45,555 bases of DNA. Origin: a virus. Location of the stretch: the UHGV virus genome UHGV-2198558. The stretch is one strand, 5' to 3'. Below the pieces are notes generated by a model. That model saw only the letters and a program-made list of their open reading frames with translations, ran no database searches and had not been told where the DNA came from. Of the stretch, positions 1 to 18,842 are shown piece after piece. The position numbers and the translations under genes are program-made. The stretch's first letter is position 1. Each line of letters starts with the position of its first letter.

Positions 1-81
1 TGTCGGAGGTGCTTCTGGAAAATCAGAATTGATTCCAGCCGAAATCATATTTTCAAGAGGCTCAAATGTATTTGCACTCAT
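1..81 (-). CDS. Partial CDS (first 27 codons, MSANTFEPLENMISAGINSDFPEAPPT...) running off the left edge; downstream partner of the GHKL ATPase gene
   Basis: ATG at 81..79 overlaps the stop of the upstream GHKL gene (ATGA arrangement), open frame to position 1. Function unknown. Confidence 0.35.
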   Translation of the reverse strand, partial: MSANTFEPLENMISAGINSDFPEAPPT

Positions 82-1538
82 ATTCCGAACTCCTTTTTTA
101 TAGTTTTAACAGCATTAGGATAATTGATATAAGGTTCTATCGTTTCAAGCATTTCCAACATTCGCTTCTGAGCTTCAAGCGAAGATTGTACTGCAAGAAC
201 ATCCCTTATCATCTGTATTATTTCCTTTTCTGCTAGAATTTGGTCGTTTTTAATTTGCTCATCATTATTTAAATCTATATATAACTGATTTAACGGCAAA
301 GATGATTCAATTAAGTGAAGTAGACTCTCTAATAACTTTTGGGCAGACTCGGGATTGCTACGAATCTGTTCTACCACGGGGTGATCTCGGTTGATTTCAT
401 AATAAAAGCCACCTTTTGCTGCTTTCATCCGGTTCCATACGTGCGAAATTGAATCATCCGTTTCCTTTTTCCCTCGGAACACCCAAGTCCGTTTACTTTT
501 CTCTGCTATTTTCTCGATTATTAATTCAAGATTCTTTCGCACCTCCGCAGGCGGTAGAGCAGAGGATTTCTTTATATCCAATGTCCATAAATCATCCAAC
601 GTGTTGGGGATATCTACTTGGATACGGGCGAGCTTTGACAAGTCTCCCTTTCTCATCATTCTAAACCATGTACCCCATACAAGAAGGCGTTTATTTCTAT
701 AAACATAGAACCCCTGTTGTTTCCTTAATCCGTCCTTTCCGCCTAATCGCTTGATTTCCTCTGCCGTCATTTTTGATGTGTGTGGTAAAATATACGGTCT
801 GACAATTATTTTCTCCCCACGAATTTTAAGTATTTCATCATCCATAGGTTGCTGACTTTTACCAGATAAGAATGGATCAAACGGTACTATAGCAGTATTA
901 TTGATGCTAATTTTTATTTTTTTAAGTCCTGTTTCTCCAGATAGATACCTATGGAATACAAGTGAGATATGTTCTCTGACACCATCTATCTTTTTTCCAA
1001 GGACCTCTTCAAAGTTTATCTCACCTGATTTCAGCCGATCCAACTCCTGCCACACAATTAGTGTTCCAGATTCATATTGACACAAAGCTTCAAAATGCGG
1101 AACTGTATGCATCTCATCGGAGTCAAGTACAATTAATGACCATTGACCAGTTTGTGCAACATAGTCGATATCCCATCTTCTTCCTTCGATACTATTACCT
1201 TTCTTAGAGATAACAGTGAGGACTCGACACTGCGATAATGATGCAGTTTTTAATCCTAAACCAAATCTTCCAAGGTCATTTGTAGCTCTTATATCTAATG
1301 GATTTCTGCTTCCATATTGCATAGCTTTATCAATTTCAGGTGCATCCATACCGTTACCATTATCTAGCACAGCTATGTAAGCATCACCGACAGGGAAGAA
1401 AAATATATCTATATTCTCAGAGCAGGCAGCAATACTATTATCGATAATATCTGCTATTGCTGCATCTAACGTATAACCGATTGCCCTTGTAGATTCAATC
1501 AATGTGGGTGCATATGGCGGTAGTTCTATAGTGTGCAT
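78..1538 (-). CDS. GHKL-type (HATPase_c, MORC-like) ATPase
   Basis: N-terminal motifs IDNSIAA, LDNGNGMD, GRFGLGLK typical of the Bergerat ATP-binding fold. Start moved to ATG 1538 (MHTIELPP), which is preceded by GGAGGGAG at 6 nt spacing; the ORF-track start at 1589 lies upstream of the predicted transcription start. Confidence 0.75.
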   Translation of the reverse strand: MHTIELPPYAPTLIESTRAIGYTLDAAIADIIDNSIAACSENIDIFFFPVGDAYIAVLDNGNGMDAPEIDKAMQYGSRNPLDIRATNDLGRFGLGLKTASLSQCRVLTVISKKGNSIEGRRWDIDYVAQTGQWSLIVLDSDEMHTVPHFEALCQYESGTLIVWQELDRLKSGEINFEEVLGKKIDGVREHISLVFHRYLSGETGLKKIKISINNTAIVPFDPFLSGKSQQPMDDEILKIRGEKIIVRPYILPHTSKMTAEEIKRLGGKDGLRKQQGFYVYRNKRLLVWGTWFRMMRKGDLSKLARIQVDIPNTLDDLWTLDIKKSSALPPAEVRKNLELIIEKIAEKSKRTWVFRGKKETDDSISHVWNRMKAAKGGFYYEINRDHPVVEQIRSNPESAQKLLESLLHLIESSLPLNQLYIDLNNDEQIKNDQILAEKEIIQMIRDVLAVQSSLEAQKRMLEMLETIEPYINYPNAVKTIKKEFGI

Positions 1539-1594
1539 ATTTTCTCCCTCCAGTATAGATATAATTTGCGAACGGGTAAAATACCCCATAATCT

Positions 1595-1623
1595 ACTATA
1601 CCACAATCTGCTGATTTTTTCAA
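1595..1623 (-). promoter_or_regulatory. Sigma-70-type promoter for the GHKL operon
   Basis: Minus strand reads TTGAAA, 17-nt spacer, TGgTATAGT (extended -10). Confidence 0.45.
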
Positions 1624-1719
1624 TACACGATCCGCACTTTTTCAGAAAAAAGTAGGTGTTTTGTTTCCTTTCATTTTGTAAAGAGTTACTTTTTTCTCTT
1701 GACAAATCATGATAAGATG

Positions 1720-1768
1720 CGAAAAACTCTGTGCAAGCATCGGACATCAGTGTCCATTTGCACAGAGT
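1720..1768 (-). terminator. Rho-independent terminator after the HExxH-protein gene
   Basis: Perfect 11-bp inverted repeat actctgtgcaa / ttgcacagagt (1726-1736 / 1758-1768), followed on the minus strand by a U-run (plus-strand gaaaaa 1721-1726). Confidence 0.6.
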
Positions 1769-1801
1769 CTTATTCTATGATTTACTTTCTCTACGGACTT
1801 A

Positions 1802-2899
1802 TCACTCCGAATACTCTCTCGCCATCTCTTTTATCTTCTCAACCATCATATCGCTGATGCAGCTTCCGATCTTCTCTAAAGTGTCCTCGTCCATCAACCA
1901 GAAACCTTTCTTATTAAGGTGTGCATCAAGTATCTTATACATTTTCCACATATGCGGCTGATAACACTCTGGTATATCGCTGATGCAGGTCGGCTCTATG
2001 TTTTCATCGGGATAAACGCCGCCATTGATCTTCAGCTTACCCTCGTTAGCGGCATTTACAAATAATATCGTCAGATCGTCTGTGAGCAATTTTGCGAAGT
2101 AGTGGGCAAGCGCATACTCATCAATGGTGTGCGAATAGTAGTAAAGCGTTGCTTCAAGAAAATCCTCTAACTGATTTACTATCCCGCCCCATACATCTGT
2201 TGTCCAGTCGAGCATTTCCGGATGATAGCTGTCACCGCCGGAGCGAATCGTATAGCTGACATGGTTTGCGATTACTTCTGCGATAAACTCCTGCCAGAAC
2301 CAGTAGCCTTCCTGCTTTCGGCGTTCACTGCTGTATCTGCAGCCGTCGATTGCTGCATCATATAAAGGAGAATCATCTATCAGACCGGGTTCATTATAAC
2401 GGTGCAGATCATCTACCTCTGCATTGATAGTGTAGAAATGCCCAAGTTCATGCCAGAAGAAATGTTCAAAATAAACACGCAGCTCGAAGTCGTCATGCAC
2501 AGGCAAGTCTGCCACAAGCTCCCTGCGAATCAGAATCGCATTGCCTTTCTCACCGTGTATGTATTCCATGATGGAGTCAGGCGGTTCCTCTGTATGAGGA
2601 CAGCCGATGCTTTTGATGATCTTCTTTCTTGTCCGGGAATAACTGCTTGCAGTTGAAGTATACACCGGCGGAAACGGAATGCCGAGATCAGGCATGATCT
2701 GCTCAAACTGCATCTTTGCCATTTCAGCCCAGTAAAGAATCGTTGCTTCGGGTATCGGGCGCGGCTTTGGCAGTTCAGCAGGATGTGCGGTATCTTCGCC
2801 GTTAGTACGCTCGGCAAATTCAAGCATACTCTTTACAAAATCAAGCGGCAAGCCTTTTTCTTCTGCCAGCTTCTGTGCTTCGACTTCAAGTTCATTCAT
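1802..2899 (-). CDS. Hypothetical protein with HExxH motif (FFWHELGHF), possible zinc metallopeptidase
   Basis: 365-aa ORF; AGGAG 8 nt upstream of ATG 2899; own promoter and terminator. The HExxH assignment is a motif-level inference only. Confidence 0.6.
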   Translation of the reverse strand: MNELEVEAQKLAEEKGLPLDFVKSMLEFAERTNGEDTAHPAELPKPRPIPEATILYWAEMAKMQFEQIMPDLGIPFPPVYTSTASSYSRTRKKIIKSIGCPHTEEPPDSIMEYIHGEKGNAILIRRELVADLPVHDDFELRVYFEHFFWHELGHFYTINAEVDDLHRYNEPGLIDDSPLYDAAIDGCRYSSERRKQEGYWFWQEFIAEVIANHVSYTIRSGGDSYHPEMLDWTTDVWGGIVNQLEDFLEATLYYYSHTIDEYALAHYFAKLLTDDLTILFVNAANEGKLKINGGVYPDENIEPTCISDIPECYQPHMWKMYKILDAHLNKKGFWLMDEDTLEKIGSCISDMMVEKIKEMAREYSE

Positions 2900-2940
2900 G
2901 CGCTTTACTCCTTGTAAAATAGTACAATAATTTATTTTTT

Positions 2941-2969
2941 ATTATAGCACAATTGCCGCCTGTTTTCAA
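2941..2969 (-). promoter_or_regulatory. Sigma-70-type promoter for the HExxH-protein gene
   Basis: Minus strand reads TTGAAA, 17-nt spacer, TGcTATAAT, then about 35 nt to the RBS and ATG. Confidence 0.5.
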
Positions 2970-2990
2970 GCCTTTAGAGAGCGTTTTCAT

Positions 2991-3038
2991 ATAAAAACTC
3001 AGGCTCTGTGAGAAGACACTATACCTCTCACAGAGCCT
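2991..3038 (-). terminator. Rho-independent terminator after the SRAP gene; also the boundary between the AT-rich island and the prophage body
   Basis: Perfect 13-bp inverted repeat aggctctgtgaga / tctcacagagcct with a 12-nt loop; U-run on the minus strand (plus-strand aaaaa 2993-2997). Confidence 0.55.
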
Positions 3039-3045
3039 CTATTCA

Positions 3046-3681
3046 TTATACAGCCTTTTCCATCACTACCTCAGTCAAAGCCCTCTTGCATATCTCAGCA
3101 GGATTCCCGTTCGGCTTTATCCAGCTTTCAACGTCCTCTCTACTCAGTATCACCGGCATTCGGTCGTGGATGCTTCTCAGTTCCTCGGTTGCGTCCCGTG
3201 TGATTACCGCAAACACCGGGCAATTAACTCCGTTTCTCTCCTCGATCCTATACAACAGCCCAGCAAGCAGCGTAGATTCGGCTCCTTTCGGCTGTATCAG
3301 GTATTTATCGCCAACCTTCTTCTTTTTCCCGTCCGGACTCCTGAAATGCTCCCATTCAAAGTACCAACTGCTCGGAATTACGCATCTACTTCGGAACCAT
3401 GAGTCCTTCCACATTTCCTTCTGGTCAGCCGTTTCGAGGCGGCAGTTCACGATTGGAGCATCGGTCGCGTCATGACTGAAACCCCAGAGCATCGGAAAAA
3501 CTTCCATTCTTCCGTCCTTATTCGGTGCTAAAACCGCAGCAACATCAGTCGGACGCAGTTCACCGGACATAAACAGCGGTTTGCCGAGTTTTACCATGAT
3601 AGTATTCGCTAGCTCCAGTTTCTGTGCCCGTGTGATCAGCGGAGCGAACTGAGCAGGCTCTACATAGAAGCGTGTACACAT
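3046..3681 (-). CDS. SOS response-associated peptidase (SRAP / YedK / DUF159 family)
   Basis: Begins MCTRF with Cys at position 2 (family hallmark), plus a conserved HDRMPVIL segment; 211 aa. Confidence 0.8.
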   Translation of the reverse strand: MCTRFYVEPAQFAPLITRAQKLELANTIMVKLGKPLFMSGELRPTDVAAVLAPNKDGRMEVFPMLWGFSHDATDAPIVNCRLETADQKEMWKDSWFRSRCVIPSSWYFEWEHFRSPDGKKKKVGDKYLIQPKGAESTLLAGLLYRIEERNGVNCPVFAVITRDATEELRSIHDRMPVILSREDVESWIKPNGNPAEICKRALTEVVMEKAV

Positions 3682-3695
3682 AAGACCACGACCTT

Positions 3696-4253
3696 TCAGC
3701 CTTCGATCATTCTCAGCTTATAGTGTTTTCGGCAGAGTGCTGTATAACTCTCATTACCGCCGAGCTGTACCTGTTCTCCCTCTGTGACCATTTCACCGTT
3801 CAGGAGTCTTGCATTGAAGTGCGCTCTTTTGCCGCACCAGCAGATGGTCTTGATCTGCTCAATATCGTCTGCAAGCTCCATGAGCCGCTGTGCGCCGGGA
3901 AACAGATGACTCTGGAAGTCTGTCCGCAGGCCGTAGCAGATAACTGTGATGCCATGAAAATCCACAAGATCACTGAGCTTGTCTATCATTTCAGGTGACA
4001 GGAACTGCACCTCGTCAACGATGATACAGTCATAATGCTCACCATTATAGTCAGCAAGGAAGTTTTCAGCAAACTCGCAGGGTTCTTCAAGTCCGATGCG
4101 GGATTTTAGGTTCTTCGCACCGTCCCTGTCCTCGCATCTCGGCTTCAGCAGAAGCACTTTTTTGTCTCTCTCATAGTAGTTATATCGAACCATAAGCGCA
4201 TTGGCGGTCTTGGAGCTGCCCATTGCGCCGTATCTGAATATCAGTTTTGCCAT
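3696..4253 (-). CDS. tdk: Thymidine kinase
   Basis: P-loop GAMGSSKT, VDEVQF, and C-terminal zinc-binding cysteines (CWCGKRAHF...CRKH); 185 aa. GAGGAG RBS sits inside the 3' end of the repressor gene. Confidence 0.88.
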   Translation of the reverse strand: MAKLIFRYGAMGSSKTANALMVRYNYYERDKKVLLLKPRCEDRDGAKNLKSRIGLEEPCEFAENFLADYNGEHYDCIIVDEVQFLSPEMIDKLSDLVDFHGITVICYGLRTDFQSHLFPGAQRLMELADDIEQIKTICWCGKRAHFNARLLNGEMVTEGEQVQLGGNESYTALCRKHYKLRMIEG

Positions 4254-4258
4254 CTGCC

Positions 4259-5131
4259 TTACTCCTCATCGTCCTCGTGCATGACTTCATATCGCTTGAT
4301 ATCTCTCTTGCTTGCAATGGAAGCGGGTTCAAGGATACCGAGAACGCGCCCGATCAGAGTGACATTGTCATATTCTGTGAATGTCATGGTATCATACTTA
4401 TCATTAAACGATACCAGACCTTCTTCCTCATATATCTTTATGTATGTACTGTTTCCAACCATGAAAGCGCCGACCTCATCGTATTGCAGCTCCGGACAGC
4501 CGGGATACTTCTCCACAAGAACAAGGTCGCCGTCATGATACTCAGGCTCCATACTGTCGCCGTTGACAGGAAACACAAGGTCTGCCTGCCGTATTGCTGT
4601 GTTCGTATTCGGATACAGATAGATCGGTGTTCCGTTGTCCTCAAACTCCGCCCCGCCGTCAAAGCCTGCTGCAAGCCCCTTGTCGCAGAGTGTCAGTTTG
4701 ATGATCTCCGGGAAGCTGCCGACAGTCTCTGCCGCTTCAAGCGAGGATAGCAGACTGTCCATTGCAAGCTGGTGCGGATACGACAGTCCACGGTATCTCT
4801 CTACCATAGACTTTTCCTTATCAGTATAGGTATCTTGCTTGTTTTCGATGCCATATAGTTCATACAGCGTGATACCAAGTGCGTCACATAGCTTAGGAAC
4901 AACGCTGAAATCCGGGCGGGTTCTTCCGTTCTCCCAGTTACTGATAGCATTTGAGGTCACGCCGATTTTTTCTGCAATCACTTTCTGATCTAATTTTAGA
5001 CGCTCCCTGTAGTATTTGATGCGACCGCCAACCGCGTGAGCGTCCTTACGGTGGGCAGGATCAGAGATGTTACTCTTAATATCCTTGCCTCCCTGTGAGA
5101 CTGAGATATTCGGTTTCTTACGCTGTTTCAT
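4259..5131 (-). CDS. Prophage repressor, CI/LexA-like (XRE-type HTH plus S24 self-cleaving peptidase domain)
   Basis: HTH segment IKYYRERLKLDQKVIAEKIGVTSNAISNWENG; S24 motifs VNGDSMEPEY and GDLVLV. Start set to ATG 5131 (AAGGAG 9 nt upstream); the ORF-track start at 5149 is a TTG. Confidence 0.85.
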   Translation of the reverse strand: MKQRKKPNISVSQGGKDIKSNISDPAHRKDAHAVGGRIKYYRERLKLDQKVIAEKIGVTSNAISNWENGRTRPDFSVVPKLCDALGITLYELYGIENKQDTYTDKEKSMVERYRGLSYPHQLAMDSLLSSLEAAETVGSFPEIIKLTLCDKGLAAGFDGGAEFEDNGTPIYLYPNTNTAIRQADLVFPVNGDSMEPEYHDGDLVLVEKYPGCPELQYDEVGAFMVGNSTYIKIYEEEGLVSFNDKYDTMTFTEYDNVTLIGRVLGILEPASIASKRDIKRYEVMHEDDEE

Positions 5132-5291
5132 TACAAAGCTCTCCTTCAAGAATGTATGGGATAGTCAATCCTCAAAACGAACAAATATTCTTATTGAAAT
5201 CTGTGCAACCCTACAAAGTTTATCAAAGACTTTTCAACGCTGAAAACGTTAGAAATGCGAAATTTGGCGTAGGCATTGCATCTTTGATCAC

Positions 5292-5320
5292 ATTATAGCA
5301 CACAATCGGTGTTTTGTCAA
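5292..5320 (-). promoter_or_regulatory. Repressor-operon promoter (consensus sigma-70)
   Basis: Minus strand reads TTGACA, 17-nt spacer, TGcTATAAT: a perfect consensus. Confidence 0.6.
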
Positions 5321-5333
5321 TACAAAATTGCAC

Positions 5334-5362
5334 TTGCAATTCGTTTGACGGTGTGATATAAT
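5334..5362 (+). promoter_or_regulatory. Divergent rightward promoter
   Basis: TTGCAA, 17-nt spacer, TGaTATAAT; back-to-back with the repressor promoter. ATTGCA-type repeats (5274-5339) are candidate operator half-sites. Confidence 0.5.
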
Positions 5363-5563
5363 AGCAATGTCGGTATTCCGCCTACAGGAAAATGAGACCG
5401 AAGGCTGGTGCAGTGTGTCCGTCTTAAGGTGTGTGACAGGACAGACTGCCGGTCAGAGTACCGACAACTTCGCCATCAACCCACTTCGCCACGATAGATA
5501 TACAGAACAATAGAATGGAGCTAATGTTGGAAATACCATAAGTTGCGAAACAGGAGGGCGTAA

Positions 5564-8140: not shown

Positions 8141-8863
8141 ATGGAAAACGCAAATGTTCAGAATGCTGCCGCTATCACCGATAAGACCACCCTCGGCGAA
8201 CTGCTTGCAATGCTTGACCTCGCTGATAAGGCAGGCAAGATGCCGACACCGAGAGAACTGTTTGAGACTGCCGGTTCGCCGATAGCCGATATGAATGGCT
8301 GCACTCTCTTCAGCAACGGCTTCGCCATCTATCAGAATGTCACTGGGCGCACTGTTGTCTGGCTGCCGTACTGCAAGAGCTTCACCTATTACTTCGGCAA
8401 GCTCCGTGATTCCGAGAAAGACACGCTGACAGAGACCTATGAGCTGCCGGATGGATTTCTGGAAACACAGCCGTGGGTGATCGCAGTAACACTGATCGGC
8501 GACCATCGTGTGGAGGCAAACAGCATGAACCGCACCGGCAGCCGCAAGGATACCACAGATTATGACAGCGCCGATAACGGCGATAAAGACGGTGATGCAG
8601 AGGAGGCTTTGGCAGATCCGTATCGCAGGGCATTCAACTGGTATGACGGACGCATGGGCGAGAATCCGCAGGATGCCGTGGAGCGCAGAGAGACACGCGA
8701 GGAGATGCTTGCAGACATGACGGACAAGCAGCGTGAAGCCTTTATTATGTACTTCAGGGATGGTATGACGCAGGAAGAGATTGCTTCATATATAGGGGTA
8801 AGCCGTGATTCCATAAATGACAGGCTTGAAGGTGCTTTGAAAAAAGCAAAAAAATATTTTTAG
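8141..8863 (+). CDS. Sigma-70 region-4-like HTH protein (putative phage transcription regulator)
   Basis: C-terminus LTDKQREAFIMYFRDGMTQEEIASYIGVSRDSINDRLEGALKKAKK resembles sigma region 4; no region 2 recognised. Start at ATG 8141 after GAAAGGAA. Confidence 0.65.
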   Translation: MENANVQNAAAITDKTTLGELLAMLDLADKAGKMPTPRELFETAGSPIADMNGCTLFSNGFAIYQNVTGRTVVWLPYCKSFTYYFGKLRDSEKDTLTETYELPDGFLETQPWVIAVTLIGDHRVEANSMNRTGSRKDTTDYDSADNGDKDGDAEEALADPYRRAFNWYDGRMGENPQDAVERRETREEMLADMTDKQREAFIMYFRDGMTQEEIASYIGVSRDSINDRLEGALKKAKKYF

Positions 8864-8906
8864 GATACCCACAAAAAGACCTCTCCCACGACAGTATATG
8901 AGAGGG
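8863..8906. repeat. Copy 1 of a 44-bp intergenic repeat (second copy at 22690-22733)
   Basis: ggatacccacaaaaagacctctcccacgacagtatatgagaggg; 41 of 44 positions identical to copy 2; contains a cctctc/gagagg hairpin. Confidence 0.6.
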
Positions 8907-8994
8907 CTTGAAAAGAAACCAAACCGCAAGCGGCTGCAAAGCCCTCGCAGCCGAACCATTATTACATCGGTCGAAAGACCTGAACAGAAAGGAA

Positions 8995-9363
8995 ATGCTT
9001 ATGCCTATGGAAAACAGAGTCCCGAAAAACCGCTACAACGGCGGTGCCGCAACCGATGCCGACAAGCAGGACAAGCCCGATGTGCTGAAGATGATCGAAA
9101 CGGCAATGGACAAGCGTGCGGCGGGCATCGCACAGACGGTCACGGATATGTTCCGTTTCATGTCGATGGCATCTGCCATGCTCCCGAATATGGAGATGGA
9201 TGTCGGTGTGTTCCGTCTGAAGATCGACGATGACGGCATCTTTTTCGAGATCAACCATCCGTTCCGCAAGCGCAAGCAGCGTGATATCTCCAATGACTGC
9301 TGTGCCGAGGAGCCGGACAACTATGATGATGACGAGGAGGGACTGATTTATGACGGAGACTGA
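8995..9363 (+). CDS. Hypothetical protein with acidic C-terminus
   Basis: GAAAGGAA RBS then ATG 8995; C-terminus EEPDNYDDDEEGLIYDGD. Confidence 0.55.
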   Translation: MLMPMENRVPKNRYNGGAATDADKQDKPDVLKMIETAMDKRAAGIAQTVTDMFRFMSMASAMLPNMEMDVGVFRLKIDDDGIFFEINHPFRKRKQRDISNDCCAEEPDNYDDDEEGLIYDGD

Positions 9364-9844
9364 AAAGAAATTCCCTGTGCCGGGACCGCTTCCCGTAGAC
9401 GCAAAGAAGCTGATCGATGGGCTTGGCACGATCTTCGGCGGCGTGATCCAGCTTCTGGCAGCAATGGAGCCGAACATGGCAAAGGAGCTGGCGGACATGG
9501 CGATCAACGGTGTGCCAAAGGAGACTGCGCCGGAGGAAATCAATCCGGACGATTTCGAGGAGATCATCACCGCTGACGATCTGCCGTGGGATACAGAGCC
9601 GGAGCAGCCCGAAGAGCCGAAACCTGCGGAAAAGCCCAAACCGAAGAAGGCGGCAAAGAGGGCGGAGCCTGCATCGGAGCTGACCGCTGATGACCTCATC
9701 CGCGTGGTGACGCAGAAGATCAAGCAGAACCGTGCCAACAAGGACAAAGTGCTGGCGCTGCTGAAATCCTACGGTGCGGCAAAAGTCAGCGATATACCTG
9801 CGGACAAGTACGAAGCGTTTCTCACTGACCTGTCGCAGCTCTGA
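9350..9844 (+). CDS. Hypothetical protein
   Basis: GAGGAGGGA RBS; 164 aa with a Pro/Glu/Lys-rich linker; overlaps the previous stop by 14 nt. Confidence 0.55.
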   Translation: MTETEKKFPVPGPLPVDAKKLIDGLGTIFGGVIQLLAAMEPNMAKELADMAINGVPKETAPEEINPDDFEEIITADDLPWDTEPEQPEEPKPAEKPKPKKAAKRAEPASELTADDLIRVVTQKIKQNRANKDKVLALLKSYGAAKVSDIPADKYEAFLTDLSQL

Positions 9845-9858
9845 TCGGAGGTGGCACG

Positions 9859-11106
9859 ATGCCGGATGTTCATGCACTTCTGAGTGCATCCAGTTCCAAG
9901 CAATGGCTTCACTGTCCGCCGTCCGTCCGCCTGCAGGAGAACTTTCCGAACGAGAGCTCCGTGTATGCCGCCGAGGGAACATTCGCTCATGAGGTCTGCG
10001 AGTACAAGGTCCGCAAGTATCTGAAGGAGCGTGTGAAACGTCCGCAGTCCGAGGAATATGACACCGAGGAAATCGAGCAGATCACAGATGTGTATGCGGA
10101 GTTCGTGATCTCCATCATTGAGCAGATGAAGGAGAACGGCTGTGAGTCGCTTGCTTTTGTTGAGGAGCGTGTGGACTACAGCCACATTGCCCCTTCCGGC
10201 TTTGGCACGGCAGATATGCTCATCATCGGTAAGGACGAGCAGGGACGCGGAATCCTTCATGTATGCGATTTCAAGACGGGTGCAGGCGTGTTTGTGGATG
10301 CAGACCACAACAGCCAGATGATGCTCTATGCGATCGGAGCTTTAGCCGCCTACGGCTTTTTGTATGATATTGAGATCGTGCGTATGAGCATCATTCAGCC
10401 TCGTCTGGATAATATCAGCACATTCGAGTGCAGCAGAGCCGAGCTTGAGGAATGGGGCGAGAGCATCAAGCCCATTGCGAAACTTGCCTACGAGGGCAAG
10501 GGCGAACAAAGCCCCGGCGACTGGTGTCGGTTCTGCCGTGCAAAGCCTGTTTGCAAAGCGTGTGCCAATGAAGCACTGGCACTCTGCCGTGAGGATTTCC
10601 TTGACCTCGATGCCGGAGCATTCGATGATACTGCGGAGGAAAGCGATATGACCGCACCCTACGAAGCGGATATACAGACTGCCGTATTCAAGCAGCCGGG
10701 ACTGATTCCTATCAGCGAACTTGCGGAGATCCTGCCGACTCTGAACCGCATCAGCTCTTGGATCGAGGCGGTATTCGCATTCGTATCCTCCGAGGCGATC
10801 AATCACGGTGTACCGATTCCCGGCTATAAGGTGGTCGAAGGGCGCAGCAAGCGTGTATTCACAGATACAAAAGCTGTGGTCGATACCGCTGTTCAGAACG
10901 GGTACACCGACCTTTACAAGCAGACGCTCATCACGCTGACGGAATTTGAAAAGATGATGGGCAAGAAAAAGTTCAACGAGCTGCTCGGTGAGTATGTCGC
11001 CAAGCCACCCGGAAAGCTGGCACTTGTGCCGGAGAGCGATCCGAGAGAACCCGTTGATCTCACAACACCCGGTCAGGAATTTGAAGTTCTCTCTGATGAT
11101 GAGTGA
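9859..11106 (+). CDS. PD-(D/E)xK nuclease, DUF2800-like (Cas4/RecB-like cysteine cluster)
   Basis: N-terminus LSASSSKQWLHCP, core DMLIIG...HVCDFKTG, cysteine cluster CRFCRAKPVCKAC; GGAGGTG RBS. Family name from recall. Confidence 0.78.
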   Translation: MPDVHALLSASSSKQWLHCPPSVRLQENFPNESSVYAAEGTFAHEVCEYKVRKYLKERVKRPQSEEYDTEEIEQITDVYAEFVISIIEQMKENGCESLAFVEERVDYSHIAPSGFGTADMLIIGKDEQGRGILHVCDFKTGAGVFVDADHNSQMMLYAIGALAAYGFLYDIEIVRMSIIQPRLDNISTFECSRAELEEWGESIKPIAKLAYEGKGEQSPGDWCRFCRAKPVCKACANEALALCREDFLDLDAGAFDDTAEESDMTAPYEADIQTAVFKQPGLIPISELAEILPTLNRISSWIEAVFAFVSSEAINHGVPIPGYKVVEGRSKRVFTDTKAVVDTAVQNGYTDLYKQTLITLTEFEKMMGKKKFNELLGEYVAKPPGKLALVPESDPREPVDLTTPGQEFEVLSDDE

Positions 11107-11179
11107 GGATCATACAATAATGCCGCAATTATTCTGTTTGGTGAATACGCAAAATTGAATGAAATATAGGAGGTATACT

Positions 11180-11755
11180 ATGGCAAACACAACACCCGCG
11201 ACTAAAGTGGTTATTCCCTGTCGCATTTCTTTTGCGAACATCTGGGAGCCAAAATCAATTAATGGCAGCGAAGAGAAGTATTCCGTTTCCCTACTGATCC
11301 CGAAGGATGACAAGGCAACGCTCGCCAAGATCAAGAAGGCAATTGAGGCGGCAAAGGAAGCGGCGAAGGAGAAGAAGTGGGGCGGCAAGATCCCGCCGAA
11401 CCTCAAGCTGCCGATGCATGACGGCGACATCGACCGTCCTGATGACGAGAACTATGCCGGTCACTTCTTCTTCAATGCCACGAGCAAGGATGCACCGCAG
11501 ATCGTTGACCGCCATGTGCAGCCGATTCTCGATCCGATGGAGTGCGGCAGCGGTGACTATTGCAATGTCAGCGTGAACTTCTACGGTTTTGCAGCATCCG
11601 GCAACAAGGGCATCGCAGCAGGACTCCAGAACATCCAGCTTGTCCGCCACGGTGAGCGTCTTGCGGGCAGACCGACCGCAGCATCCGACTTCGTTGAGGT
11701 CGAGGGCGATGACACGGATGATCTCGCAGACGATGATCTGGATTTCCTGAACTGA
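11180..11755 (+). CDS. DUF2815-like single-strand DNA-binding protein
   Basis: TAGGAGGT RBS then ATG 11180; acidic SSB-like tail DDLADDDLDFLN; sits between the DUF2800-like nuclease and the polymerase. Family name from recall. Confidence 0.72.
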   Translation: MANTTPATKVVIPCRISFANIWEPKSINGSEEKYSVSLLIPKDDKATLAKIKKAIEAAKEAAKEKKWGGKIPPNLKLPMHDGDIDRPDDENYAGHFFFNATSKDAPQIVDRHVQPILDPMECGSGDYCNVSVNFYGFAASGNKGIAAGLQNIQLVRHGERLAGRPTAASDFVEVEGDDTDDLADDDLDFLN

Positions 11756-11795
11756 CGCATAAGGGAGGCTTGCCTCCCTGTACATACACAAACAG

Positions 11796-14681
11796 GTGGT
11801 GATTTTATTGAGCAGACGTGTACTTTCCATCGACTTAGAGACCTATTCGGATGTAGACCTCCCGAACTGCGGTGTGTACCGCTATGTTGAGGGAGATTTC
11901 CATATCCTGCTGTTCGCATATGCATTTGACGATGAGGAGACAAAATGCGTGGATATGGCCTGCGGGGAGCAGCTCCCGGCAGAGGTCGTGGATGCGCTGC
12001 AGGATGACAGTATTATCAAATCGGCATGGAACGCACAGTTTGAGCGTACCTGCCTTTCAAAATATCTCGGTACGCAGATTTCTCCGGACTCGTGGCAATG
12101 CACGATGGTATGGGCGGCATCGCTTTCACTTCCGCTGAAGCTGGCAACGGCTGCACAGGCACTGAAAACTGCACAGCAGAAGGACGCTGTCGGTGAGCGT
12201 CTTATCCGTTATTTCTCTCTGCCCTGTAAGCCCACCAAAGCAAACGGCGGCAGAACAAGAAATCTGCCGGAACACGCCCCCGAAGACTGGAAGCTGTTCA
12301 AAAGCTACTGCATACAGGACGTGGAAACCGAGCGGGATATCCGCCGCAGGCTTGAAAAGTTCCCCCTGCTCCCGCAGGAATGGGACTACTACCACATGGA
12401 TCAGCGGATCAATGATCGCGGTATCCTGATCGACAAAGAGCTTGTGCAGCAGGCTATTATCTGCAATATGGCAATGTCCGAAGAAATGACAAAACGTGCA
12501 TACGCTCTGACAGGACTTGAAAATCCGAATTCCGTATCACAGCTCAAGGGATGGCTTGAGGAGCGTGGCATTGAGGTGGATTCCCTCGGCAAAAAGAATG
12601 TCGCTTCTCTTATCACAGACCTCGACAGGCACAGCGCAGACGGTGAGGCTCTGGATATGATGAAGCTGCGGTTGCAGATGGCAAAGTCCTCTGTGAAAAA
12701 GTATCAGGCGGCAGAGAGATACATCTGTCAGGACGGCAGGGCGCACGGACTGTTTCAGTTTTCCGGAGCTCAGCGAACACAGCGCTGGTGTCTTACCGGC
12801 GATCATGAAATACTGACAGATAAAGGCTGGCTCAGGCTTGATAATTGGCAGGGCGGTAAGATTGCTTGTTGGAATCCTAATCAGGAAATGGTCTCGTTCC
12901 AGAAAGCGAACGTATTGTGCTTTGAATATGACGGTCCTATCTACCGCTATGAGGACAAACGGATCGATCAGATCAGCACGCCGGATCACAAAATGCGTGT
13001 AAAGAAACGGTATAACGGCGAGTGGACGGATGACACTGTTGGCAATATGGAAAAGTATCGTCCTTCTATTCCGTTTACCGGACGCAGACAAACGATGCCC
13101 GGCTTGGAGCACGCAGAACTGAGGGTACTGGTGATGACGCAGGCTGACGGCAGCTATAAAGAAGATGGAATGCTCTGCTTCCATTTCAAGAAGAAAAGGA
13201 AAATAGAACGGTGCAAACATCTGCTCAGACAGGCGGGCATTTATTTCACAGTGAATGAATGCAGGACAGATGGAACAACGCAGATCAAGATTCCTTCCCG
13301 TGAGCAGCCGATGTATCTAAGAATGTTTCATAACAAGACATTTGGAATGTGGCTTCTCGATGAAAGCCCGGATGTTTTCTTTGATGAGCTTCGGTATTGG
13401 GACGGATCGCAAAGCGCCAAAAACAGTATCCAATATACCACAACGAACAAAGTGAATGCCGATATTGTTCAGGCTTTTGCTCATACAAGTGGTCGCTGTG
13501 CAAAAATGAAAACGGTCATCCGGGATAAAGAACACCCGAATTGGAGCGATGCATACTATCTCGATATATGGCTCACTCCGAAAAACTGTCATGAAATCAG
13601 AGTGAAGCCGACTATCTCGCAATTCAGCGGCAAAATATACTGTGCTGAAACCCCAACCGGATACTTCCTTGTAAGACGTAATGGTAAAGTGTGGGTAACA
13701 GGAAACAGCGGGCGCGGCATTCAATTACAGAACCTGCCGCAGAACCACATCTCTACCCTCGATGAAGCAAGAGAACTTGTCAAAATGGGCTGCTTTGACA
13801 TGATCGAAGCACTGTACGGCAATACGCCGGATATCCTGTCACAGCTTATCCGCACGATGCTCATTCCGAAGGACGGCTGTGAATTTATCGTGGCAGACTT
13901 CTCCGCCATTGAAGCGAGAGTACTTGCGTGGCTTGCCGGAGAACAGTGGCGGCTCGATGCCTTCAAGCGTGGCGAGGATATTTACTGTGCATCCGCATCG
14001 CAAATGTTCGGTGTTCCGGTCGTGAAGCACGGCATCAATGGAGAACTGCGGCAGAAAGGCAAGGTCGCTGAGCTTGCCTGTGGTTACGGAGGTGGCAGCG
14101 GTGCGCTGATCTCTATGGGTGCGCTGGATATGGGACTGAAAGAGGATGAACTTCCCGACATCATTTCAAGCTGGCGCGATGCAAACCCGGAGATCGTGAA
14201 ATTCTGGTATGCCGTGGAGAAAGCGGCGATCGAAACAGTCAAGGACCACGCGGAAAGAACGGTCGGCAGGATCGGTTTTCAGTTCTCTGCAAATACACTG
14301 TGGATCGTGCTGCCGTCCGGGCGCAGACTTGCCTACATCAAGCCGAGGTTACAGCCGAACCGTTTCGGGCGTATGGCGCTGACCTTTGAAGGACTCGGTG
14401 CAAACAACAAATGGACGCGCGGTGAGACATACAGCGGCAAGCTGACGGAGAACATCACACAGGCGACCGCCCGTGACCTGCTTGCAGAGGCAATGCACCG
14501 AATGGAGCTTGCGGGACTTGACATAGTCGGTCATGTGCATGATGAGGTCATTTTGGAAGTGCCGAAAAGACAATATACGGTCGATGATGTGTGCAATATC
14601 ATGAATCAAAATCCGAGATGGGCAGACGGTCTGCCCTTATCATCTGCCGGATATACCGGCAATTACTACTTCAAAGACTGA
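11796..14681 (+). CDS. Family-A DNA polymerase (3'-5' exonuclease plus polymerase) interrupted by an intein
   Basis: Exo motif SIDLETYSD; polymerase motif A FIVADFSAIEARVLAW, motif B RQKGKVAELACGYGGG, motif C HVHDEVILE. Start uncertain (GTG 11796 or TTG 11808). Confidence 0.85.
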   Translation: MVILLSRRVLSIDLETYSDVDLPNCGVYRYVEGDFHILLFAYAFDDEETKCVDMACGEQLPAEVVDALQDDSIIKSAWNAQFERTCLSKYLGTQISPDSWQCTMVWAASLSLPLKLATAAQALKTAQQKDAVGERLIRYFSLPCKPTKANGGRTRNLPEHAPEDWKLFKSYCIQDVETERDIRRRLEKFPLLPQEWDYYHMDQRINDRGILIDKELVQQAIICNMAMSEEMTKRAYALTGLENPNSVSQLKGWLEERGIEVDSLGKKNVASLITDLDRHSADGEALDMMKLRLQMAKSSVKKYQAAERYICQDGRAHGLFQFSGAQRTQRWCLTGDHEILTDKGWLRLDNWQGGKIACWNPNQEMVSFQKANVLCFEYDGPIYRYEDKRIDQISTPDHKMRVKKRYNGEWTDDTVGNMEKYRPSIPFTGRRQTMPGLEHAELRVLVMTQADGSYKEDGMLCFHFKKKRKIERCKHLLRQAGIYFTVNECRTDGTTQIKIPSREQPMYLRMFHNKTFGMWLLDESPDVFFDELRYWDGSQSAKNSIQYTTTNKVNADIVQAFAHTSGRCAKMKTVIRDKEHPNWSDAYYLDIWLTPKNCHEIRVKPTISQFSGKIYCAETPTGYFLVRRNGKVWVTGNSGRGIQLQNLPQNHISTLDEARELVKMGCFDMIEALYGNTPDILSQLIRTMLIPKDGCEFIVADFSAIEARVLAWLAGEQWRLDAFKRGEDIYCASASQMFGVPVVKHGINGELRQKGKVAELACGYGGGSGALISMGALDMGLKEDELPDIISSWRDANPEIVKFWYAVEKAAIETVKDHAERTVGRIGFQFSANTLWIVLPSGRRLAYIKPRLQPNRFGRMALTFEGLGANNKWTRGETYSGKLTENITQATARDLLAEAMHRMELAGLDIVGHVHDEVILEVPKRQYTVDDVCNIMNQNPRWADGLPLSSAGYTGNYYFKD
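12789..13706 (+). mobile_element. Intein (306 aa) within the DNA polymerase, with candidate LAGLIDADG homing-endonuclease motifs
   Basis: Starts CLTGDHEILTDKGW (block A, Cys1) and ends VWVTGN followed by Ser; internal LRVLVMTQADGSY and LRYWDGSQ motifs. Inserted in ...GAQRTQRW / SGRGIQLQNLP. Confidence 0.7.
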
Positions 14682-14694
14682 GGAGGATATTCTT

Positions 14695-15744
14695 ATGAAA
14701 CAGGGACGAGCATTACCGGAAGTGCTGACAGAGCTTCAGAGACAGAATGCAGCAAAGCAGGATTATATTGGCACGGCAGAGGCGTTCCGTCTGGACGAGG
14801 ACGGCAGCACCTTCCGGATCGGTGACGATCACAGCTTTGGTACCACACAGCTTTTCCATCGTCAGGTGGCATCGGCACTCGGCATTCCGGCGAAGTATTA
14901 CGACATGATGCAGAAACAGAAGCCTGACCTTCTGGCAGACAATGTGAATGCATGGTTCAGTGACAAGGGCAGCAGCTACATGGTGCGTACCCTTGATTAC
15001 GGCAGCGGACAGGTTGCGAGAGCCTTTCTGTCTGACCGTTACCGCCGTATCGATAACCTTGAAATTGCCTCGGCTGTTCTCCCGATTTTCGCCGGACAGG
15101 AAGGCATGGAGGTCATGAGCTGCGAGGTCACAGAGAATAAGCTGTATCTGAAGATCGTCAATCACCGTCTGGAAATGGCGTGTGTCGGTGACCGTGTGCA
15201 GGCAGGTGTCATCATCTCCAATTCGGAGGTTGGACTCGGTGCTGTGTCTGTTCAGCCGCTTGTCTATACACTTGCCTGCACCAACGGCATGGTGGTCAAC
15301 AGTATGGGCGAACGCCGTACCCATGTCGGCAGGGCGGCGAAAGCACTGGAAGACAGCTTCAATATCTACACAAATGAAACCCTCGAAGCCGAAGATAAGG
15401 CATTCATGCTGAAGCTCCGTGATACCACAATGGCAGCAATTGAAGAGGCTCGTTTCGCACAGATCATCGGTGTGTTGGAGCAGAGCCACGGCGCAAAGAT
15501 CACAGGACGTGTGCAGGATGTCATCGAACTGACCGGCAAGGCGTATGACCTGAATCAGTCGGAACAGGACAGCATTCTGAACTATCTCATCAAGGGCGGC
15601 GATCTTTCCCTCTATGGTCTGAGCAATGCCATCACACGCGCTTCGCAGGATGTAGATTCCTACGACAGAGCCACTGCGTTAGAGGGCATCGGCTGGCAGG
15701 TGGCGACCATGCCTGCAAATCAGTGGAAGGAGATCAACGCATGA
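14695..15744 (+). CDS. DUF932-like phage/plasmid protein
   Basis: GAGGAGGA RBS; 349 aa; segments AFLSDRYRRIDNLE and VIISNSEVGLGAVS match my recollection of DUF932/TIGR03299 proteins. Confidence 0.6.
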   Translation: MKQGRALPEVLTELQRQNAAKQDYIGTAEAFRLDEDGSTFRIGDDHSFGTTQLFHRQVASALGIPAKYYDMMQKQKPDLLADNVNAWFSDKGSSYMVRTLDYGSGQVARAFLSDRYRRIDNLEIASAVLPIFAGQEGMEVMSCEVTENKLYLKIVNHRLEMACVGDRVQAGVIISNSEVGLGAVSVQPLVYTLACTNGMVVNSMGERRTHVGRAAKALEDSFNIYTNETLEAEDKAFMLKLRDTTMAAIEEARFAQIIGVLEQSHGAKITGRVQDVIELTGKAYDLNQSEQDSILNYLIKGGDLSLYGLSNAITRASQDVDSYDRATALEGIGWQVATMPANQWKEINA

Positions 15745-15974
15745 GCAGAACCTGGAAAGACAGAAAAGGATATAAAACACGCAGAAAACGACACGGATAT
15801 CCTGTGCCGGAGATCTGCAATTACACACGCGGCAGCTATGAAGATTATGACCACAGCGATGAGGAACTGTATGTCGATGACCAGTGCTGCGAGAACTGCC
15901 GCTTTTGCGGATGTTGCCGTCATACACCGTTCCCGTCGGGCTGGTGCGAATACTGGAAGGACGGCACACATTGA
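15741..15974 (+). CDS. Small cysteine-rich protein
   Basis: ATG overlaps the previous stop (ATGA); cysteine cluster CCENCRFCGCC. Confidence 0.45.
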   Translation: MSRTWKDRKGYKTRRKRHGYPVPEICNYTRGSYEDYDHSDEELYVDDQCCENCRFCGCCRHTPFPSGWCEYWKDGTH

Positions 15975-16411
15975 GAGAATATGTTGTCGAAAACGAGTTT
16001 GTCAAGGCGGTAAAAGCGGCAGGCGGTGTGGCATACAAGCTGACATCGCAGACCGCAAACGGACTGCCGGACAGACTCGTTCTGTTCCCGGCGGCAAAGA
16101 CGATTTTCGTGGAGCTGAAAGCACCGGGGAAAATGATGCGACCGTTGCAGCGTAAAAGACGGTATCAGCTTATGAAACTCGGCTTTCCGGTGCTGTGCAT
16201 TGACAGGATGCCGCAGATCAAGCCGTTCATATCAGCAGCATTGTCATGGACACCCGGTGAGCCGTTCCCGGAAGGCATCGGTGCGAAGATACCCGATCTG
16301 GAAAGGGCAACGCTGCCGACGGATATGGATAACTTCGGGGAAACGCTTGAACCCATCGATCCAGACAATCTGATAGAGTTTTATGAAATAGAGGACGGTG
16401 ATGATGCATGA
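15971..16411 (+). CDS. VRR-NUC domain nuclease
   Basis: GLPDRLVLFP...FVELKAPGK...LQRKRRYQ pattern. Start uncertain (TTG 15971 after GGAAGGA, or ATG 15911). Confidence 0.65.
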   Translation: MREYVVENEFVKAVKAAGGVAYKLTSQTANGLPDRLVLFPAAKTIFVELKAPGKMMRPLQRKRRYQLMKLGFPVLCIDRMPQIKPFISAALSWTPGEPFPEGIGAKIPDLERATLPTDMDNFGETLEPIDPDNLIEFYEIEDGDDA

Positions 16412-16905
16412 TTAACCCTAAACGCAGAGCTGTGAGAAAAAGCTGCTCATACTGCGGAACTGTCTTTACCTATGTCGGAAGTCATGGTACAAGAAATAAG
16501 CATTTTTTCTGTTCTCATGAATGCTATATTGCCTTTAAGACAAAGAAAGCAGAAGTGAAATGCGATTGGTGCGGCAAATCAATGCTGAAAAAACGCTCTG
16601 ATATATGGAGAACGGATCACAATTTCTGCTGCCCCGAATGCTGTTTACTGTATAGGCAAAAGCAAGGCGAAACTTCATGGAATCATCGTGTGAATGGAAT
16701 AACCGTACACAGGGGCATTTTGGAGAAGAAGCTCGGACGAGAACTGCGTGCGGATGAAGAAGTACACCTTATCGATGGTAACCATTTCAATAATGATCCG
16801 GACAATCTCATCGCCCTTTCCAAATCGGAACACGCCAAAATTCATTCTTCTTGGAAAGCGAGGGACGAGTATGGAAAATACGTTAAAACGCAGTCAGATT
16901 CATGA
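16408..16905 (+). CDS. HNH homing endonuclease with N-terminal zinc-finger-like CxxC pairs
   Basis: HLIDGNHFNNDPDNLIALSKSEHAKIH HNH motif; ATGA overlap with the VRR-NUC stop. Confidence 0.8.
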   Translation: MINPKRRAVRKSCSYCGTVFTYVGSHGTRNKHFFCSHECYIAFKTKKAEVKCDWCGKSMLKKRSDIWRTDHNFCCPECCLLYRQKQGETSWNHRVNGITVHRGILEKKLGRELRADEEVHLIDGNHFNNDPDNLIALSKSEHAKIHSSWKARDEYGKYVKTQSDS

Positions 16906-18253
16906 ATACCAAAAATACTGTGTTGACTTTATTAAGTCTCATCCCGTATCAGCACTCTTTTTGGATTGCGGACTTGGAAAGACGATCATTTCATTGACTG
17001 CAATATATGATCTAATGTTTGATGAGCTGAAGGTATCTAAAGTTCTTGTAATTGCCCCTCTAAGAGTGACAAATGTCTGGAAAGCGGAGGTTCAGAAATG
17101 GAGTCATCTGCAAGATGTTGATGTTGCGATAGTAGTCGGAACTGTAAAACAGCGGATTGCTGCGATTAACAGTAACGCTCTTGTTTACGCTGTCAACCGT
17201 GAAAATGTGAAGTGGCTCGTAGAGTATTACGAGAAGAACGGTCTTCGCTGGGATTACGATATGATCGTCATTGACGAGCTGAGTTCCTTCAAAAACTACC
17301 AGTCACAGCGGTTCAAATGGTTGCGTAAGGTTCGGCCTTTCGTGAAGCGCTGGGTAGGATTGACAGGAACGCCGACTTCCAACGGTCTCATGGACCTGTG
17401 GGCAGAGATCGGTATCCTTGACGGCGGTGAGCGGCTCGGACGGTTTATAGGCAGATTTCGTGAAAGCTATTTCAAGCCTGCGTCCATGAATCCGTCAACC
17501 GGTGTTGTTTTCAGCTACACCCCACGTCCCGTCGCAGAGGAGCAGATCTATAACAAAATCTCCGACATTACGATTTCCATGAAGGCACTGGATTATCTGG
17601 ATATGCCGGAATGTATCTTCGTCAATCATGAGGTCGAGATGAATGCAGCAGAGCGAAAACTATACGATCAGCTGAAACAGGATCTTATCATTCCGCTTGA
17701 GGACGGAGATATCGATGCTGCCAACGCTGCCTCTCTCTCCAACAAGCTGCTCCAGATGGCTAACGGCGCGGTCTATGACGAAAACAAGGAAGCCCGAATC
17801 ATTCACAGCCGGAAACTGGAAATGCTGGAAGACCTGATCGAAGCCGCAAACGGACAGCCTGTTCTGGTCGGCTACTGGTTCAAGCATGACCGCACTCGCA
17901 TCATGGAGCATCTAACCGCCTGCGGTTACAGCCCTCGTGATATAAAGGATTCCGCCGACATCACAGACTGGAACGCCGGAAACATCCCGGTCGCTCTTAT
18001 ACACCCCGCTTCGGCAGGACACGGTCTGAACATTCAGTCCGGTGGCCATATCATGATCTGGTTCGGTCTGACATGGAGCTTAGAGCTTTATCAGCAGACA
18101 AATGCGCGTTTGTGGAGGCAGGGACAGAAGCACACTGTCACGATCCACCACATCGTAACAAAAGACAGTGTCGATGAGGATGTGCTTGCTGCTTTGGCCA
18201 ATAAGGATGTAACACAGGAGAAATTGATCGCCGCTGTCAAGGCGAGATTATAG
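16871..18253 (+). CDS. SNF2-family helicase
   Basis: Walker A LDCGLGKT, motif II DELS, helicase C-terminal motifs. Start at ATG 16871 (MENTLKRSQIHEYQ); overlaps the HNH gene by 35 nt. Confidence 0.85.
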   Translation: MENTLKRSQIHEYQKYCVDFIKSHPVSALFLDCGLGKTIISLTAIYDLMFDELKVSKVLVIAPLRVTNVWKAEVQKWSHLQDVDVAIVVGTVKQRIAAINSNALVYAVNRENVKWLVEYYEKNGLRWDYDMIVIDELSSFKNYQSQRFKWLRKVRPFVKRWVGLTGTPTSNGLMDLWAEIGILDGGERLGRFIGRFRESYFKPASMNPSTGVVFSYTPRPVAEEQIYNKISDITISMKALDYLDMPECIFVNHEVEMNAAERKLYDQLKQDLIIPLEDGDIDAANAASLSNKLLQMANGAVYDENKEARIIHSRKLEMLEDLIEAANGQPVLVGYWFKHDRTRIMEHLTACGYSPRDIKDSADITDWNAGNIPVALIHPASAGHGLNIQSGGHIMIWFGLTWSLELYQQTNARLWRQGQKHTVTIHHIVTKDSVDEDVLAALANKDVTQEKLIAAVKARL

Positions 18254-18338
18254 GATCATACTCTCCGTATGATCCGCACTGAAAAGACGACAAAGCGGCG
18301 ACAAAACGGTTACACCGCACTCTATGGAGGTGAAAACT

Positions 18339-18842
18339 ATGGCGCGTAAGAACAAACGCCTGAAAACAGAATACCACAGAGGTCTCGGTTTTGATCCGCG
18401 AAAGTATATGACTTCCTACTCCCACCAAACTCGCTGTGAATCAATTCCGACTCCCGACCGTGCTCCAAAGCGCGGCGATATCTGGTTTGCGCGGCTCGGC
18501 ACACATCCGAATTCCAGTGTGCAGGGCGGCACCCGTCCCGTTATCATCATTTCTAACGACCTCGGCAACGAACACGCTGACACCGTCAATGTTGTGCCGA
18601 TGACCAGACACCTGAAAAAGCCGGAGCTGCCTTGTCACACTCCGCTTTCTCCCGGCAGCATTACCGATAGCAGACAGCCGCTTGAACTGTCAATGGTGCT
18701 GGCGGAGCAGCTCACAACTGTCAGCAAGAACGCACTTCGCTATTATGCAGGTCATATTTCCGATGACGAAGCTATGAACCGCATCGAAACCGCTGTTATT
18801 GCGCAGCTCAGTCTTGAAAGGAGATATTCCAAATGCCTGTGA
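18339..18842 (+). CDS. MazF/PemK-like protein with a 48-aa basic N-terminal extension
   Basis: GDIWFARLGTHPNSSVQGGTRPVIIISND and NVVPMT parallel E. coli MazF GDLIWVDFDPTKGSEQAGHRPAVVLS and CVPCTT. GGAGGT RBS 7 nt before ATG 18339. Confidence 0.6.
   Translation: MARKNKRLKTEYHRGLGFDPRKYMTSYSHQTRCESIPTPDRAPKRGDIWFARLGTHPNSSVQGGTRPVIIISNDLGNEHADTVNVVPMTRHLKKPELPCHTPLSPGSITDSRQPLELSMVLAEQLTTVSKNALRYYAGHISDDEAMNRIETAVIAQLSLERRYSKCL

Follow-up and report, generated by a model that had tools for sequence, protein, structure and literature searches.

What does the AT-rich left edge of a viral genome encode, and how much of it arrived as one piece? The genome is UHGV virus genome UHGV-2198558, presented as a stretch of 45,555 nucleotides (nt) that we call the window, and the question concerns its positions 1-2990, where an earlier reading made from the letters alone (the original prediction) had placed a single AT-rich island with two transcription units, a GHKL ATPase operon and a gene for an HExxH protein, and had proposed that the island was a horizontally acquired, defence-type cargo module. 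The defence reading of the GHKL operon is supported by what follows, and the reading of one island made of two units is not. Positions 1-1665 are probably the promoter-proximal end of a horizontally acquired cassette of about 9 kb, related to the Mza defence system and linked to a C5 cytosine methyltransferase (Dcm), which a temperate phage would carry as immunity cargo resembling a restriction-modification (R-M) system and expressed during lysogeny. The carrier appears to be a temperate phage of gut Clostridia (Oscillospiraceae/Ruminococcus-like). What had been an AT-rich, unannotated edge thus resolves into a complete Mza-like cassette of five genes, a methylase gene among them, whose promoter and boundaries are defined and which lies in a phage cargo hotspot.

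The GHKL ATPase and the operon that it heads

The window holds the following parts of the cassette:

1-1665: window part of the ~9.0-kb low-GC Mza/Dcm cassette (positions 9874-18877 of the contig L001, introduced below), with its right-hand boundary at ~1665
1623..1595, minus strand: cassette promoter, TTGAAA, 17 nt, TG-n-TATAGT; 10 of 12 matches, extended -10
1546-1551, minus strand: ribosome-binding site of mzaB, GGAGGG, 7 nt upstream of the ATG, read from the sequence
78-1538, minus strand: mzaB, GHKL (MORC/MutL-like) ATPase of 486 amino acids (aa), first gene of the cassette
81-1, minus strand: start of mzaC, the first 27 codons, running off the window; its ATG overlaps the mzaB stop by 4 nt

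The 486-aa GHKL ATPase of the original prediction is borne out by the open reading frame at 78-1538 on the minus strand, which matches the Pfam domain HATPase_c_3 (E 3.7e-30), and the defence-type character of its operon by a match to the PADLOC model for MzaB that covers residues 6-479 of 486 (E 2.2e-92). The NCBIfam model for MzaB is likewise its top match, at 368.7 bits and under the cutoff of 850, with MutL models matching weakly (E 4e-5 to 3e-3), and its nearest solved relatives are MORC3 and MORC2. At least 95% of 76 homologues keep the motifs DxxDNS, DxGxGM and GRxGLGLKTAS; MzaB itself carries N34, DNGNGM and GRFGLGLKTAS, and its motif I reads DxxDNS where ExxxNS is usual. ATPase activity is a plausible prediction from these motifs. 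The 486-aa start is preferred over an ATG at 1589, which would give 503 aa, because the GGAGGG precedes it and because transcription is predicted to start at 1589 or downstream of it.

The coupling of the ATPase to a gene that leaves the window, also part of the original prediction, is confirmed by the 4-nt overlap of stop and ATG, with the downstream gene at 81-1 on the minus strand. The identity of that partner had been left to the sequence further to the left. The exact 486-aa MzaB protein is encoded on 15 public contigs, and the eight that were examined (8/8) show one layout. The 82-kb contig L001 (ENA ERZ27262483:k119_75777) is 100% identical to the window across all 11,538 overlapping nt and, because of this identity, was used as the window's leftward extension. 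The partner in it is mzaC and not a housekeeping gene.

In L001 the cassette runs mzaB-mzaC-mzaD-mzaE-dcm, with junctions of -4, -8, +12 and -8 nt. MzaC is a protein of 918 aa that matches the PADLOC model of that name (E 9e-121) and, more weakly, 'Helicase_II' (2e-42); its motifs GDVQSGKT (Walker A), LIDDEADNAS, TATPxAN and YDTLxQMGRWFGYR are conserved to at least 95% in 72 homologues. MzaD is a 310-aa DUF4420 protein of the PD-(D/E)xK type (PADLOC MzaD, E 3e-20), with a DQDF..WxExK motif that is conserved to at least 95% in 67 homologues, and MzaE is a 693-aa AIPR protein (Pfam AIPR, E 7.6e-99; PADLOC MzaE, E 9e-74). The NCBIfam Mza models are the sole match for MzaC, MzaD and MzaE, and coverage is near full length for all four proteins. 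The last gene, at L001 17226-18878, overlaps mzaE by 8 nt and encodes a C5 cytosine methyltransferase of 550 aa (Pfam DNA_methylase, E 4e-64) in which motifs I, IV (PPCQ), VI (ENV), VIII and X are intact and at least 95% conserved, PPCQ, ENV and GNAVPP included. Between motif VI (ENV, ~137) and motif VIII (PQKRMR, ~347) of this Dcm lie about 200 poorly conserved residues, and the Pfam match falls into two separate stretches; a gap of that length between the two motifs seems long for Dcm enzymes.

Boundaries and spread of the cassette

The limits of the cassette are drawn most sharply by comparison with the viral contig L093, from a sister phage, which is 91.5% identical in nucleotide sequence over exactly L001 9874-18877, as against 77-79% in the phage genes on either side. 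The shared stretch begins 127 nt ahead of the mzaB start codon, takes in the promoter and ends with the stop codon of dcm, and the promoter is kept in the sister cassette as TTGAAA-17-TGgTATAAT. As the identity of the cassette exceeds that of its flanks, it has moved as a promoter-bearing unit. The L093 homology stops at window position ~1665, which places the end of the island between the terminator of the HExxH gene and the mzaB promoter. Hairpins of the form CTCTGTG...CACAGAG, found in terminators, were considered as recombination sites for the cassette and set aside, being absent from the junctions in the sister phages.

To the right of this boundary, and like every gene in window positions 1-5150 on the minus strand, lie:

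~1771-1722, minus strand: intrinsic terminator of the HExxH gene, a long hairpin followed by a U tract
1802-2899, minus strand: HExxH protein of 365 aa (HELGH), zincin-fold metallopeptidase-like, of an unnamed family; independent cargo
2969..2941, minus strand: promoter of the HExxH gene, TTGAAA, 17 nt, TG-n-TATAAT; 11 of 12 matches, extended -10
3038..3001, minus strand: terminator of the repressor-TK-SRAP unit, a 15-bp stem and then a T tract; conserved left flank of the cargo hotspot
3046-3681, minus strand: SRAP protein
3696-4253, minus strand: thymidine kinase (TK)
4259-5149, minus strand: repressor with helix-turn-helix and peptidase-S24 domains

The SRAP terminator invoked in the original prediction is thus present, at 3038..3001; the island does not end there, as had been proposed, since the L093 homology puts its edge at ~1665. 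Nor does the AT-rich stretch reach 2990. The low-GC block is real, but it spans 1 to ~1665: this block has 37.9% GC, against a mean of 51.8% (sd 2.5, minimum 45.5%) for 1665-nt windows in the rest of the sequence, and lies below every same-size window elsewhere in the 45,555 nt. The contrast first put at 26-44% against 53-58% holds in direction and is smaller when computed, 100-nt windows in 1-2900 having 27-54% GC and the phage body a mean of 51.8% with a 5-95% range of 41-60%. At third codon positions (GC3) the cassette genes have 31-36% and the phage genes 51-57%. The HExxH gene, by comparison, has 46.4% GC and a GC3 of 51%, which ranks it among the lowest 6.6% of values in the phage body, yet inside the body range; TK, SRAP and the repressor, at 48-50% GC, are near its value.

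A genome scan with one genome per species found 76 mzaB loci, with MzaB identities of 51-80%, mainly in Clostridia, Bacilli and Negativicutes and also in Thermoguttaceae, Nitrospiraceae and Desulfobulbaceae. Gene order was counted in the 61 GTDB loci with enough downstream sequence: the B-C-D-E order is kept in all 61, and a C5 methylase lies directly downstream and collinear in 52, elsewhere in the locus in eight and is missing from one. The gene upstream of mzaB, in about 70 loci compared, differs in nearly every one, these genes being mutually unrelated; because of this variation we recognise no equivalent of MzaA, the remaining protein of the characterized mzaABCDE system. The GC of the cassette is lower than that of its flanks in 37 of 48 loci. 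Seven viral contigs with Mza were found in IMG/VR, and the cassette also occurs on plasmids. RefSeq labels the genes of the Dcm-linked cassette generically. A conserved mobile cassette with variable flanks and deviant GC is what the proposal of a horizontally acquired cargo module would lead one to expect, and it is this arrangement, rather than a core-genome context, in which the homologues of the ATPase are found.

The same data bear on the idea that the operon serves housekeeping DNA repair, with a MutL-like ATPase, a helicase and a nuclease acting in very-short-patch or mismatch repair. The weak MutL matches would be in keeping with it, as would the Vsr genes that adjoin some relatives (on a Rhizobium plasmid and in loci L041 and L065). 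The distribution, however, is patchy across phyla, the flanks vary, the carriers include prophages, plasmids and viral contigs, the GC is deviant and the best models are all defence-system models, and we regard a repair role as barely credible.

The cargo slot and the possible function of the cassette

The cassette lies in a variable slot formed by window positions 3001-1 together with L001 8493-21461, which in L093, L101, L103 and L111 is bordered by the repressor-TK-SRAP genes on one side and by a gene for a 160-aa protein (o160) on the other; SRAP is the last gene that these four have in common before the variable region. In L093 the SRAP gene is followed directly by Mza; in L103 by an insertion sequence (IS) element and o160; in L101 and L102 by Dcm, a gene for a 291-aa protein and others, and then o160, with a tyrosine integrase next in L101; and in L111 by a different methylase-led set, others and o160. 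L113 has a gene termed o137, then o160 and then a tyrosine integrase. Across its members the slot thus holds Mza, type II R-M-like pairs, NUDIX/Phage_30_3 genes or an IS only. From these related phages it seems very probable that the cassette lies inside the prophage, between the lysogeny genes and the integrase. The defence hotspots of P2 and P4 phages (Rousset et al., 2022; PMC9122126) are similar in that conserved phage genes flank a slot occupied by differing defence systems; the phage here differs in belonging to another lineage, in gut Clostridia, and in having its slot between repressor-TK-SRAP and a phosphatase-like gene beside the integrase.

Several features of the slot may be recorded in their own right. 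The o160 protein (L001 20945-21427) contains HCYAGQSRS, of the form HCxxGxxRS typical of dual-specificity phosphatases, with a weak Pfam DSPc match, and belongs to a very large family (984 matches at E < 1e-30). A second small predicted phosphatase is encoded downstream of dcm at L001 19200-19517; it has 105 aa, carries CSQNKRRS and resembles low-molecular-weight protein tyrosine phosphatases (Pfam LMWPc, E 1.4e-5). The 'empty' hotspot of L103 holds, at ~8700-9700, an IS-like element with the inverted repeats TAACGTGAGTTCGA and TCGAACTCACGTTTA. L111 has further genes past o160 (10796-17453), one for a PP2C phosphatase and two for proteins of 597 and 1376 aa, the larger of which matches Pkinase and, faintly, Card1 endonuclease; together they may be another defence-type cargo set. 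Around the L113 integrase a segment of ~180-240 nt, with the first 36 integrase codons, occurs twice in inverted orientation (3412-3599 and 4995-5238); this 5' segment of the integrase is found again at L101 11901-12082 and L120 4010-4251, and as an isolated fragment beside host-like genes in L117 and L120. It could be an att-related or an invertible segment.

Among known systems the closest is mzaABCDE (PADLOC 'mza'; NCBIfam NF041932-NF041935), which is credited to Gao et al. (2020) in PMC13223576 and called validated in PMC9523054. The E. coli system lowers the plating of T4 by 10- to 10^4-fold without growth arrest, and its purified MzaD cuts DNA in vitro (bioRxiv 10.1101/2022.06.16.496414); phage protection has been reported for the Salmonella and E. 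coli Mza systems only. MzaA has been described as sigma-factor-like, and a putative 'type II' system with the same gene set, which shares about 20% identity with mzaBCDE and usually has no mzaA, has been noted (PMC9523054). The locus here shares four of the five proteins, MzaB-E, and differs in adding a C5 cytosine methyltransferase to the operon, in its Firmicutes host and in its prophage carrier. In composition it also matches the type 3 operons among the MORC/paraMORC R-M operons of Iyer, Abhiman and Aravind (2008), which combine a superfamily II (SFII) helicase (C-terminal DThhQXuRhFG), a novel protein of restriction endonuclease (RE) fold, AIPR and DCM and which are the putative system termed 'type II' by Miller et al. 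(2022). Those descriptions are computational and concern chromosomes and plasmids, whereas the present cassette has its own promoter, lacks Vsr and is carried by a temperate phage as cargo. A more distant comparison is with the CglI/NgoAVII-type ATP-dependent restriction enzymes, which have R and H subunits and a C5 methylase; in the present locus the nuclease is a DUF4420 PD-(D/E)xK protein and not the site-recognising R subunit of CglI, and the GHKL and AIPR proteins are extra. The cassette is, judged by its sequence, a Dcm-linked, MzaA-less relative of mzaABCDE and the R-M operon that was predicted in 2008 and again in 2022. A literature search for an experimental report on the Dcm-linked Mza variant found none.

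The cassette probably works as an ATP-dependent immunity system resembling R-M. The Dcm methylase would mark the DNA of the lysogen and of the prophage in it; MzaC would translocate along DNA; MzaB could use ATP to dimerise as a clamp or to act as a looping module, as has been proposed for its MORC and MutL relatives; MzaD, as a PD-(D/E)xK nuclease, would cut incoming DNA that is unmarked; and the AIPR protein MzaE might serve in sensing or as a further effector. In this way the lysogen would keep out superinfecting phages and foreign DNA of other kinds.

The tight linkage of a methylase with a nuclease complex, seen in 60 of 61 loci, also invites the thought that the cassette is mainly a selfish, R-M-like addiction module that kills cells which lose it, with phage protection as a by-product, and its movement as a unit between phages and genomes, with GC under that of the flanks, recalls the transposon-like mobility that Iyer et al. 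described for operons of the MORC/paraMORC type. On the other hand, the homologous mzaABCDE, which has no methylase, protects against phage without growth arrest, and superinfection exclusion would suit a prophage hotspot in which other phages have R-M and kinase/phosphatase systems; a mainly selfish role consequently appears unlikely to us, though addiction and defence are mutually compatible.

Some of the evidence weighs against an immunity function as outlined above. The general-base glutamate of the Bergerat fold (Glu35 in MORC3) is an aspartate, Asp30, in MzaB, as in at least 95% of the 76 homologues. The NCBIfam scores fall to about a quarter to under half of the equivalog cutoffs (369/850 bits for B, 496/1500 for C, 104/420 for D and 322/1050 for E), and MzaB-E are genuine, if distant, relatives of the tested system, from which their putative function is transferred. 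MzaA is absent, and the gene upstream of mzaB here, that of the HExxH protein, is unrelated. Few sequenced phages carry an mzaB homologue (3 of 50,697 records). The L001 extension, to 21461, stops short of the integrase and att of the exact prophage, and metagenome loci that pass the o160/AlkZ-related junction continue with a 36-codon 5' fragment of the integrase and then host-like genes for a sugar regulator and a binding protein. Two such loci, L117 and L120, were tried for placing the prophage end and not used, as they have no phage on the other side and may be remnants or different insertions. For the Dcm-linked variant, the function and the roles of methylation, protective or otherwise, and of the AIPR protein are predicted ones.

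The Dcm-linked variant is widespread (76 species genomes in several phyla, plasmids and viral contigs) and has so far been predicted only, and the cassette offers a convenient entry to the role of AIPR proteins and to methylation as self-protection. The locus would be of greater interest were the variant to turn out a distinct two-motor restriction mechanism, or the orphan zincin beside it, discussed next, a conflict gene.

The HExxH gene and its phage neighbours

The HExxH protein with separate transcription that was originally proposed is found as described: the 365-aa reading frame at 1802-2899 on the minus strand contains HELGH and has its own promoter and terminator. Both this promoter, at 2969..2941, and that of the cassette, at 1623..1595, follow the shared pattern first noted, TTGAAA-17-TGnTATA(A/G)T on the minus strand, and they are the second and third best sigma-70-like sites in 1-5400. 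The terminator is predicted to fold at -30 kcal/mol (z = -3.4, with no shuffled sequence as stable), and since it lies between the two units, at ~1771-1722, the HExxH transcript is taken to be separate from that of the cassette.

Within the protein W149, H150, E151, G153 and H154 are invariant in 36 homologues and E204 and E208 nearly so, and the AlphaFold model is confident (pLDDT 90.5, pTM 0.83). Searches of Pfam, PADLOC, PHROGs and NCBIfam gave no family match, a profile search of the PDB gave only spurious matches to designed repeat proteins, and comparison with the viral structure models of BFVD gave nothing significant. The model resembles gluzincins and minigluzincins (M1, M13, thermolysin and selecase; PDB 3cmn) at 9-12% identity, and differs from them in a C-terminal helical domain that is unmatched, in a third metal ligand that is not assigned and in lacking a signal peptide. 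On the strength of the model it is probably a zincin-like metallopeptidase of an unnamed family.

Whether this gene and the GHKL operon form two units of one defence module, within a single AT-rich acquired island covering the whole of 1-2990, can now be weighed. The two genes are adjacent, on one strand, with very similar promoters, and both belong to the variable cargo that follows SRAP. The composition tells them apart, the GC3 of the HExxH gene (51%) being phage-like in contrast to the 31-36% of the cassette; a strong terminator stands between the units; and the L093 homology of the cassette stops at ~1665, with mzaB following SRAP directly in that sister phage and no HExxH gene present. 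The HExxH gene is absent from all 76 genomic and all seven viral Mza loci (L093 included), while homologues occur without Mza on viral contigs, in mobile elements that also encode a WYL regulator and serine recombinases, and next to genes for YodL, LPD18 and DUF4316. The HExxH gene is a separate, monocistronic cargo gene and not part of Mza, and the two-unit island seems to us very improbable. The possibility that the HExxH protein stands in for MzaA was likewise dropped, as it has no PADLOC match.

A different partnership, with the phage genes on its other side, deserves mention and is about as improbable, if anything by a shade less so. The HExxH gene is directly downstream of SRAP and encodes a zincin fold with an invariant HExxH, and five of 36 family members have sub-threshold SprT-like matches in Pfam (best E 0.065), so one might picture a protease that works with SRAP as a SprT/SPRTN-like remover of SRAP-DNA crosslinks, or one that acts on the S24 repressor in the manner of ImmA/IrrE. 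The same family, with 150+ homologues, turns up in other mobile elements. In L104-L107 (6976-9803 in L104) a 78%-identical homologue lies between a WYL-domain regulator and a 246-aa protein that belongs to no known family, and a 35%-identical relative of that 246-aa protein is encoded in the L111 cargo hotspot, where the HExxH gene is missing. A conserved downstream partner was considered for the HExxH gene and rejected, as the two 'partners' seen in different elements are unrelated to each other and both are missing from the window.

As for the phage genes themselves, TK and SRAP come directly after the repressor in the same orientation and seem to be transcribed with it. Back-to-back promoters occupy 5292-5362, between the S24 repressor on the minus strand and a divergent gene for a 642-aa protein on the plus strand. 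The repressor-side promoter, at 5320..5292 on the minus strand, is a perfect TTGACA-17-TATAAT with TG, and the one facing the 642-aa gene is at 5334..5362 on the plus strand; the pair looks like a lysogeny switch.

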